Shown: in pieces, positions 10,501 to 12,820 of the stretch
Layout of the letters: each line of letters opens with the position of its first letter
Position numbering within the stretch: the first letter of the stretch is position 1
From: Escherichia coli O127:H6 str. E2348/69
GTDB taxonomy: Bacteria; Pseudomonadota; Gammaproteobacteria; Enterobacterales; Enterobacteriaceae
Assembly: GCF_000026545.1 (NCBI RefSeq)
Contig: NC_011601.1
Length of the DNA: 64,000 nt
Direction: 5' to 3' (one strand)
Program-made: the position numbers

Positions 10501-12820
10501 AGTTCTCTGGTACTAAATGGGGCATATTGAGGGCAAACTTTGCAACTACGATAACCGCGCATTTAACATGGCTACCTGTTCGTCGTTCATGTCATCAATC
10601 CACATACCGTAAATTTCATACACCATCTGCGCAGTTTCATGCCCCATCTGGCTGGCTATAAATGCCGGGTTCGCTCCTGCCGTCAACAGCCAGCAGGCAA
10701 AAGTATGTCGCGTATGGTACGGATTACGGCGGCGAATACCAGCACGTTTTACTGCTGCATTCCATCTCGCTCCCAAATAGTCGTAGTGAAATCTGATGGG
10801 AAAGCCTTGCTTAGCATGCTGGTGTTGCGCTACCCGTACAGGATGCGGTAACACAGGAAGAAATTAGAACAGAAACTGTGGCGGACATTGTGCATTCGTT
10901 GCCAGGCGGAGAAATAGAACGCTACAACAGGTGCAGAATATAATTTTTCGCAAGTGCCAGAATAGCGATATTATGCAGTGTTTTTTAGTTTTCTATCAGG
11001 GGATATTTTGTGAAACTTTTCGGTGAATAAAATAATTCTCTGTAATAAATGATGAGTATGGTCGGTAGTTATATTTGCGCATGGAAATATTACATTGGAT
11101 ATGAATGTATTTCAAATGAAAGAGCCATAACGCCCGAATGGAGTTAGGGATTCATTACGCATCTAATCTAAAGAATAAGAAAAATACTTAATTCATTGTG
11201 GGTGGTGATGATATCTTGATATGTGAAAATGGTTCTCTTAAAAAGATGTAACTAGCTTATTACTTATCCATAGCACAAGAAATGGTCCTGTATCTGCGTT
11301 GCCATGAAATAAGATAGGCCTAAATGTAATAAAGAGTTGCATGGCAAAATTACTAAAGTTCACAATAAAAAAGAATTAAGTTTTTTGTTTGGGTATTTTT
11401 TTAGTGTATTGTTTTGAAATGTTCTACGCTGCTCTAACCTTCAGTTTGAAGAGGGCTTGAATCGTGATGTCAGTTTGATTGACAGAATTTTATTAATAAT
11501 GTTTACGTTTGAATGTGAAATATGTTTAACTATGCCTTGTTGTTAATCACAGGGACTGACTATGAGAAAAATACTGGTGTATTTATGTATTAGCATATGG
11601 ATTGTTATATCATGCGTGCCTATCATATTAACTAGCGAGTATTTAACAGAGGCGAGTATAATGGCATTGATGTTTGGTCATGCCAATGCACTATGTATTG
11701 GGGTTTTTATTTCTATTATTTATATAGAATGCTGGAGGTAAATAGTGTGAACAGCATTAGTTTGATGATTTTATACTGAACTAAAGGGGGAAAGAGGCAA
11801 CGAAAAAAGACCTCCACCAGGTACGAATCTGAGGCGGGCAGATGGAGGTCGATATCTACACGATTAAATTGATAAGTAAAAGCCCCATCAGGGGTTGATT
11901 TGTTCGAGTCTAATTTAAAGTAATTTCAACGATTTGGCAGAATTTCTTAGAGTTAATGATTTTCAAGTTTTCGATTACCAGGAAAAAGGCTGGGAGCTGA
12001 TAAAATAGTCATCTGCATTCCTTAAATTGTGTAAGGGTGAAAGGATAAAGTTCAATTTAAAGGCGGTACAATATTAGCACCATCTTATATATGTAATGAT
12101 TGATTTGCCTCTTTATTCTACTGTTGAGATTATTGTTTCCGAAAATTGATTATTATCAGCGCGAAAAGAAATGCTACAGCAAATAAGAGGACGATTGTCG
12201 GCGCTGGGGCTCTGTCGAGAAAATATAATAACCATACGCCTGATATTGTTATTGATATCGTTACGGCGATAAGTAATGCCTTATGAAAGCGACGCGTGGT
12301 GAGGACAGCAATAGACCCTGGAGCTGTTAATAGTATATAGACAGAATAATTCCGACTGCTTTTAATGTGGCAAAAATGGTAGGCGATACCATGCAGAGTA
12401 AACTGTAATGTAATAATGATATCTGTAATCCGCTGACTTGTGCCTGTTGATAGTCAAGACAAAAATTCCTGAAAAAACGATACCTATAATGGTATCTTTC
12501 TTTATGATGCTATTATCTTTCAGATAGCCAGTTGCAATTGCACAAGACAGTCCTACAATAAATGCACCAATTCCCAGCGGCATACCTATAATCCAGGCTA
12601 GAACTATGCCAGGAAACATTGCGTGGTTCATTGCATCTCCTATTAGCGCCCAGTCTTTTAATACCAGAAAAACTGATAATAATGCACAGGGAACGATATT
12701 ATAATAGCGATTATCAATGCATAATTCATAAATTTAAATTGTAATGATTAGAGGGTAAAATGTCAGCACATTTGCGAAATGAATCAAAAAGCCCGCAGCA
12801 ATGTGCGGGCGTTAGTGTCA

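Follow-up and report, generated by a model that had tools for sequence, protein, structure and literature searches.

Two elements at ttcA, the cryptic Rac prophage of Escherichia coli K-12 and Rac-SA53 (KU052037), an intact, inducible Rac-family phage recorded as integrated in this gene, are the closest described relatives of the locus considered here. A second point of reference is provided by lambdoid phages that carry sitABCD, such as Lambda_2E9, phage 21 and Perceval, whose minus-strand operon is flanked on one side, next to sitD, by the tail-fibre genes and on the other by attP/int. In the B2 strain LF82, sitABCD has been described as a moron of the lambda-like prophage Perceval (PMC9928086). 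We analyzed the interval between ttcA and uspF in a 64,000-nucleotide (nt) window that matches the chromosome of enteropathogenic E. coli (EPEC) strain E2348/69 (O127:H6) at 100% identity; all coordinates are window positions. This interval is very probably a colinear skeleton of a Rac-family lambdoid prophage that can no longer excise and that retains the last fragment of a sit cargo. With K-12 Rac and Rac-SA53 it shares the ttcA site, the 26-bp attachment (att) core, a phage-type TtcA N-terminus, an integrase 3′ end (97–99% identical) and the order int ... ydaW–lygF ... hok. It differs from them in keeping only ∼0.6 kb of Rac-like DNA, in the deletion of attR and of the displaced ttcA 5′ end (ttcC), which makes excision impossible, and in carrying a piece of sitD, which both of them lack.

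In the RefSeq annotation of E2348/69, ttcA (9559–10494, minus strand), which is intact, and uspF (12818–13252, minus strand) are separated by 2.2 kb of pseudogene pieces with a GC content of 35%, compared to 49% for the whole window. Three of these pieces are already known as pseudogenes: a partial tyrosine recombinase (10546–10776, minus strand), a partial DUF1627 gene (10789–10904, plus strand) and a frameshifted metal ABC transporter permease (12130–12729, minus strand). An earlier note on this DNA had proposed a prophage remnant at ttcA, consisting of a truncated integrase followed by decayed AT-rich sequence with a permease fragment. That proposal holds, with the main elements in their places and with profile matches beyond chance: the open reading frame (ORF) at 10546–10854(–) matches Pfam Phage_integrase (E = 1.7e-9), and the 89-residue ORF at 12362–12631(–) matches Pfam ABC-3 (PF00950; E = 5.8e-13, 49.4 bits versus a cut-off of 20.1). 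The tract 10855–12780 is indeed AT-rich (35.4% GC versus 49.4% for the window) and its longest ORFs span only 59 and 89 amino acids (aa). However, it is not featureless, as it holds fragments of DUF1627, DUF977 and hok genes.

The left boundary has the anatomy of a Rac insertion. The 26-bp core (attL) lies at 10445–10470, within the ttcA 5′ end; it coincides exactly with Rac-SA53 positions 722–747, annotated as attP, and is the block common to ttcA and K-12 ttcC. Around it, window positions 10401–10777, comprising the 5′ end of ttcA, the att site and the 3′ end of intR, are 96.6% identical to Rac-SA53 678–1054. The first eight codons of ttcA (10471–10494) are of the Rac type and prophage-supplied, and the encoded N-terminus is identical to that of K-12 ttcA having Rac integrated. 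The ancestral N-terminus, MSQNQEISKK, is found in K-12 ttcC and in the empty-site reconstruction; background on the Rac-type TtcA N-terminus is given elsewhere (PMC4632033). The att core, an adjacent integrase gene and the phage-type TtcA N-terminus of a Rac-family prophage at ttcA are thus all present.

Of the integrase, only the 3′ end survives. The ORF mentioned above has 102 codons, which the earlier note read as the last 102 codons of the gene. Its last 76 residues are nearly identical (75/76, 99%) to K-12 IntR residues 336–411, but nucleotide homology to K-12 Rac and Rac-SA53 ends at 10777, and the first ∼25 codons are the antisense strand of a ydaW (DUF1627) fragment. Hence a 3′ stub is present and incomplete, as claimed, but only 76–77 codons (10546–10777, minus strand) derive from intR, the N-terminal ∼335 having been deleted. 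The stub spans positions 112–165 of the 172 in the PF00589 profile, including the HTRH motif. Because ∼335 N-terminal residues are absent, it lacks the N-terminal DNA-binding domain and the full catalytic domain (R..K..HxxR..H/W..Y) of a complete tyrosine recombinase of ∼411 aa, and it is a fragment derived from the family rather than a working member. In an alignment of six B2 strains, the stub is as invariant as ttcA coding sequence, even though it is a pseudogene, with 1 variable site in 232 versus 0 in 135 for the ttcA 5′ end. Possible causes are a role as promoter or 5′ region of ttcA, or gene conversion from incoming Rac-like phages. The stub now lies directly upstream of ttcA, and its low diversity suggests that it probably carries the ttcA promoter.

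The next pieces were found by sensitive blastn against all complete E. coli genomes (28 Gb), followed by pairwise comparisons. Homology to int runs to 10777 and is followed, from 10778, by ∼6–16 nt of filler and then by an internal fragment of ydaW (10783–10904, plus strand), an early-right gene of Rac. This fragment is 83–87% identical at the nucleotide level to ydaW of Rac-SA53 and of another Rac-like prophage. It is joined to the 3′ end of lygF (10905–11026, plus strand; DUF977, Ren-like), stop codon included, through a ∼485-bp deletion at an imperfect TT(G/A)CCAG microhomology. Homology to lygF spans 10882–11026(+), with 70–79% nucleotide identity to lygF/DUF977 genes, and an ORF at 10931–11023 matches PHROG 142, the Ren-like exclusion protein, at profile positions 87–114 of 116 (E = 1.6e-6). 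Neither gene approaches full length (YdaW, 254 aa; LygF, 140 aa), each being represented by a piece of ∼120 nt.

Further along lies a pseudogene of hok (11796–11896, plus strand), a type I toxin gene of the Hok/Gef family. Three prophages have hokD/hok genes to which it is 69–76% identical at the nucleotide level (E = 5e-6 in a search of 28 Gb), and its translation, TKKDLHQVRI*GGQMEVDIYT, aligns with HokD residues 25–45. Like the hokD/relF-type loci of Qin and Rac-SA53, the pseudogene has a homologous hok 3′ half ending in the terminal hairpin of the mRNA, a terminator-like structure at 11881–11896, and it occupies the same map position. In contrast to these loci, it has no recognizable N-terminal half and no mok/sok, its frame is interrupted by a stop codon, and a His stands in place of the conserved Cys. 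A working locus, with an ORF of ∼50 aa, an N-terminal transmembrane (TM) helix, the conserved Cys and mok/sok, is thus not present; the upstream region does not align, and a search of 10300–13400 with Rfam at permissive thresholds revealed no RNA family, hok/sok elements included. Inside the coding remnant, at 11795–11850, there is an 8-bp inverted repeat, GACCTCCA ... TGGAGGTC, whose arms enclose a 26-nt loop; on the minus strand a T-run follows it. This repeat may be part of the hok mRNA fold rather than a terminator.

These pieces are colinear with the intact phage. Besides the ttcA–intR segment, window positions 10794–10904 (ydaW), 10882–11009 (lygF) and 11796–11893 (hok) correspond to Rac-SA53 12336–12447, 12933–13060 and 17941–18042, respectively, and all four keep the Rac-SA53 order and strand. 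Two other Rac-like prophages share the order ydaW–lygF–...–hok. As far as they survive, the pieces follow the arrangement of such a prophage (int–early genes–ydaW–lygF–...–hok–...–late genes–cargo–attR).

The last piece, here called sitD′ (12133–12750, minus strand), is a pseudogene of an ABC-3 Mn/Fe permease. Using tblastn with phage SitD (E = 4e-41), we found that residues 8–26, 25–102, 151–200 and 202–272 align to 12744–12133 in four segments, each in a different frame, and that residues 103–150 (48 codons) and 1–7 have been lost. Amino acid identity of the segments is 62–76% to SitD versus 40–46% to SitC. In a search of NCBIfam, ZnuB was the weakest of four families matched, and genuine phage SitD gives the same pattern. 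Both the profile match and closest similarity place the fragment in ABC-3 (PF00950), SitD subfamily, which bears out the minus-strand ABC-3 permease of the earlier note and narrows it. An intact sit system, with an uninterrupted ORF of ∼280 aa, all TM segments and its partners, is not what remains, as none of sitA, sitB and sitC is adjacent. A terminator belonging to the permease piece, as proposed in the earlier note, is not supported: past its stop codon there is only a weak hairpin (12082–12064, minus strand), and the strong hairpin terminator at 12791–12810(–) lies just downstream of uspF.

The disabling lesions in sitD′ are few. The first frameshift results from the loss of 1 nt at ∼12689 and is seen only in the E2348/69 row of the six aligned strains, and some other B2 strains have an open sitD′ ORF of 199 aa with the middle part still out of frame. 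Compared to sitD of lambdoid phages and plasmids, sitD′ is 66–68% identical at the nucleotide level, and it has a GC content of 38% versus 49.5% for phage sitD. Differences from phage sitD amount to 23%, 15% and 69% at first, second and third codon positions (96 synonymous and 64 non-synonymous codon changes). Because the differences concentrate at third positions, sitD′ diverged and became AT-rich while functional in another lineage, separate from that of the sitABCD moron phages. Its AT-richness is thus inherited from an AT-rich functional lineage rather than produced by decay, and decay proper is limited to those few disabling lesions. We infer from this single gene fragment that a complete sitABCD operon was once present. 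The sitABCD moron phages have an ABC-3 SitD gene on the same strand, as tail-fibre/attP-proximal cargo, and use an unrelated integrase, whereas the remnant retains only a broken sitD. Since the sit cargo of these phages lies between the tail genes and attP/int, in a prophage it would adjoin attR, which is where sitD′ sits.

At the far end we looked for the other half of an insertion, a second att core (attR) with the displaced ttcA 5′ fragment, ttcC. A repeat search and pairwise comparison revealed no second core and no ttcC copy between 10546 and uspF. Homology to sitD is secure to ∼12746, and from 12746 rightwards 54 of 55 nt are identical to K-12 sequence just downstream of uspF. The right-hand junction (12741–12750), seen in a three-way comparison of the window, K-12 and phage sitD, joins sitD codons 6–8 to this sequence, with GATTA/GTA..GATTAG microhomology shared by the partners. 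Beyond it lies chromosomal spacer (12751–12817, minus strand), which contains the uspF terminator. The junction shows that attR and ttcC were deleted.

The sequence to which sitD is joined has a history of its own. In K-12 (locus extract 4010–4120) and in empty-site genomes, a spacer of ∼130 bp separates ttcC from uspF. Its translation includes ...NPYHTRHSF..., and over 51 nt it is 76% identical to the IntR stub of the window. It is therefore the scar of an older integrase 3′ end. Together, the displaced 5′ end of ttcA and this short scar are an object of the same kind as the B2 remnant but at a later stage of decay. The scar is older and common to empty-site genomes; the B2 remnant is later, its right deletion ending inside the scar. 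As sitD meets scar sequence at the junction, this deletion would have started at sitD codon ∼7 and taken out the remaining cargo together with attR and ttcC. Given the older scar in 2,489 empty-site genomes, the "empty" ttcA 5′ end, supposedly ancestral, was probably also supplied by an earlier phage.

The junction also bears on a simpler idea, that sitD′ is a decayed native transporter gene, ancestrally beside uspF and lost elsewhere, which has nothing to do with a prophage. The only points in its favour are that sitD′ lies immediately next to the uspF spacer and that no phage has a close homolog of it. However, its 5′ end is fused into the integrase-derived scar, and since the scar that sitD′ interrupts is continuous in the 2,489 empty-site genomes, the B2 state derives from the empty-site state. 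The segment from the int stub to sitD′ contains neither ttcC nor a copy of attR, and the position and strand of sitD′ fit a phage sit cargo. We consider a native origin highly improbable, and the junction analysis already contradicts it.

The same junction is straddled by the best sigma-70-like match in the region (12738–12766, minus strand; CTGACA, 17-nt spacer, TACAAT; 10 of 12 consensus positions). Its –35 element is chromosomal, its –10 element comes from the 5′ end of sitD, and it points into sitD′. It may be a fusion promoter or a chance match.

We surveyed 5,426 complete E. coli genomes for the state of this site. The remnant is present in 1,044 of them at 97.8–100% identity and constant length, and the empty site (reconstructed attB) in 2,489; in most of the others the two flanks lie in separate places and the site is occupied. 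Not one of the 5,426 has a less decayed version, all 1,044 copies being of the same length. The carriers we recognize, E2348/69, CFT073, 536, Nissle, NC101, sequence type 131 (ST131), ATCC 25922 and avian pathogenic E. coli (APEC) O18, are presumably all members of phylogroup B2. Two records labelled as plasmids, NZ_CP141085.1 (385 kb) and CP054253.1 (252 kb), contain the whole 1.96-kb remnant at 98% identity; these probably represent pieces of chromosome wrongly assigned to plasmids, or else large replicons of chromosomal origin. In CFT073 the remnant was confirmed directly. This strain was the one exception noted by Liu et al. (2015; PMC4632033), having the Rac-type TtcA N-terminus without Rac at ttcA, and its possession of the remnant explains the exception. 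In an IMG/VR contig from an isolate genome (IMGVR_UViG_2684622582_000011, 1–4882), a prophage with cdtA, cdtB and cdtC ends exactly at the equivalent of 10445 and is followed by the whole remnant. Because this cytolethal distending toxin prophage abuts the core in a remnant-bearing strain, the att core must still be in use. The cdtABC cargo sits at the same attR-proximal position as proposed for sit.

The anatomy of the sequence, its homologies and junctions and its distribution among genomes are observed directly, and together they suggest the following history. A Rac-family lambdoid prophage would have inserted at the 26-bp core in the ttcA 5′ end, apparently in an ancestor of phylogroup B2, exchanging the first ttcA codons for the phage version. 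It would then have shrunk in place through at least four illegitimate deletions. One, of ∼11 kb by the Rac-SA53 map, would have joined int codon ∼335 to ydaW, and another, of ∼0.5 kb, would have joined ydaW to lygF. A third would have extended from hok rightwards to the cargo region, removing all late and structural genes, and a fourth from sitD codon ∼7 through sitC, sitB, sitA, attR and the old ttcA 5′ fragment into the older scar by uspF. The residue is a 2.2-kb skeleton, int′–ydaW′–lygF′–unassigned–ORF59–hok′–unassigned–sitD′, where ORF59 denotes an orphan reading frame described below. With no attR and no integrase it cannot excise, and it would have been inherited vertically. On this account sitD′ would be all that is left of a Mn/Fe ABC importer borne as cargo close to attR, the position that it has in lambdoid phages today. 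It would have come from an AT-rich sit lineage still functional at the time and have lost its function only late. Most likely the remnant has no function now, with one probable exception, the int stub upstream of ttcA. The earlier note had envisaged an island with a Mn/Fe/Zn uptake system, now almost entirely deleted; a decayed element with a SitD-like piece is indeed present, but the element is better described as a Rac-family lambdoid prophage, possibly in tandem with another, than as a generic island.

Several observations weigh against this account. No intact phage with both an IntR-type integrase and a sit operon was found among phages with IntR at ≥69% identity, and those phages of the collection that do carry sit have an unrelated integrase. 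A search of 5.8 billion proteins and of IMG/VR revealed no close intact relative of sitD′: the best protein matches are generic Enterobacteriaceae SitD (50–59% global identity), and IMG/VR holds only ordinary E. coli-type sitD (55%). About 770 bp (11027–11561 and 11897–12132) and ORF59 have no homolog and are assigned to the phage by position. For the idea of a ttcA promoter in the stub, the argument is the low diversity (1 of 232 nt variable), and a consensus scan of the stub found no sigma-70-like promoter for ttcA. Finally, the carriers were placed in B2 by recognized strain names and not by phylotyping.

Some of these points would be expected if two or more elements were involved, that is, if a Rac-like prophage (int stub, ydaW′, lygF′, hok′) and a second prophage or island, which integrated in tandem at this att core and supplied the AT-rich sitD′ and perhaps also ORF59 and the spacers, had been fused by later deletions. 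No phage has been found with both IntR and sit, and the GC contents differ, with 48–50% for the Rac-derived pieces and 34–38% for sitD′ and the homolog-less spacers. Serial use of the site is documented, both by the older integrase scar in the empty site and by the cdt prophage beside the remnant in one strain. On the other hand, the order and orientation expected of a single phage are fully satisfied, and 10546–12750 contains no second att core or integrase fragment. Moreover, AT-rich, mosaic cargo regions are typical of lambdoid phages. We regard a two-element origin as unlikely, though it deserves some weight. No intact relative was found that would place the sit cargo in the same phage or in a tandem element, and one prophage, acquired in the B2 ancestor, is inferred as the better account.

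The homolog-less spacers flank the ORF59–hok region. The first (11027–11561) is an AT-rich stretch (∼30–33% GC) and the most polymorphic part of the remnant, and the second (11897–12132), downstream of sitD′, contains the weak hairpin at 12064–12082(–). Among E. coli genomes, phages and plasmids, neither matches anything but its own locus, and tblastx against four prophage references gave nothing. In the six-strain alignment, diversity is unevenly spread: besides the values given above for ttcA and the int stub, variable sites number 30/552 in 11010–11561, 1/180 in ORF59, 6/164 in hok′ and 19/618 in sitD′.

ORF59 (11562–11741, plus strand) encodes 59 aa, has a predicted two-helix membrane topology and is highly invariant. 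This raises the question of whether it is a real, B2-specific gene for a small membrane protein, possibly toxin-like given the hok locus, with selection explaining why this part of the skeleton survives. Its 1 variable site in 180, set against 30/552 in the adjacent sequence, gives a binomial P of 0.02 relative to the remnant-wide rate, and it is ≥99% identical in 1,017 of the 1,044 genomes, compared to 7 of 1,044 for a 180-nt control (11200–11379). It is intact in the dominant protein cluster (≥1,000 contigs), an AGGGA Shine-Dalgarno-like motif lies 6 nt upstream, and the hok terminator hairpin follows. However, only a few independent events on a shared tree underlie these counts, and the segment was chosen after the data had been inspected. 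The invariant run (11578–11797) reaches 56 nt past the stop codon, and conservation thus does not track the ORF; the sole substitution is non-synonymous (V6M). ORF59 is moreover an orphan that PGAP does not call: among 5.8 billion proteins it matches only E. coli sequences from the same locus, with nothing above noise in Pfam, PHROGs, NCBIfam or PADLOC. The conservation is a suggestive but weak signal, and selection on ORF59 as the reason for survival strikes us as distinctly unlikely. At least as doubtful is the fuller version, in which ORF59 arose or was captured in the decaying hok locus as a lineage-specific small membrane protein, perhaps a toxin-like or membrane-modulating peptide, and was kept by selection across B2. 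If this were true, prophage debris would hide a young functional gene.

Two unusual ORF59 variants were seen. At the extreme end of a draft contig of GCA_004181975.1 (1–264), an annotated protein reads in frame from the C-terminus of IntR (...EIYGMWI) into ORF59 (VISCVP...), the two meeting at a shared "WI". This is probably an assembly artefact, but it could be a real inversion or deletion variant. The second was set aside as a probable artefact, as the called genes around the locus in that assembly are all short and without a Pfam match.

Prophage decay of this kind is well known, and in this respect the remnant is ordinary genomic debris that reveals no new mechanism. What it does provide is an account of the ttcA–uspF interval in B2 E. 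coli, which in EPEC E2348/69, uropathogenic E. coli (UPEC) strains CFT073 and 536, ST131, Nissle and others would be a fixed, non-excisable Rac-type skeleton, carried by about one fifth of complete E. coli genomes and usable as a simple lineage marker. It explains why strains without the virus present have a virus-type ttcA start. It also points to an AT-rich sit lineage, absent from present-day samples, that phages would once have carried. A single integration hotspot is documented here at three stages of decay: the intact phage, the 2-kb skeleton and the 130-bp scar.

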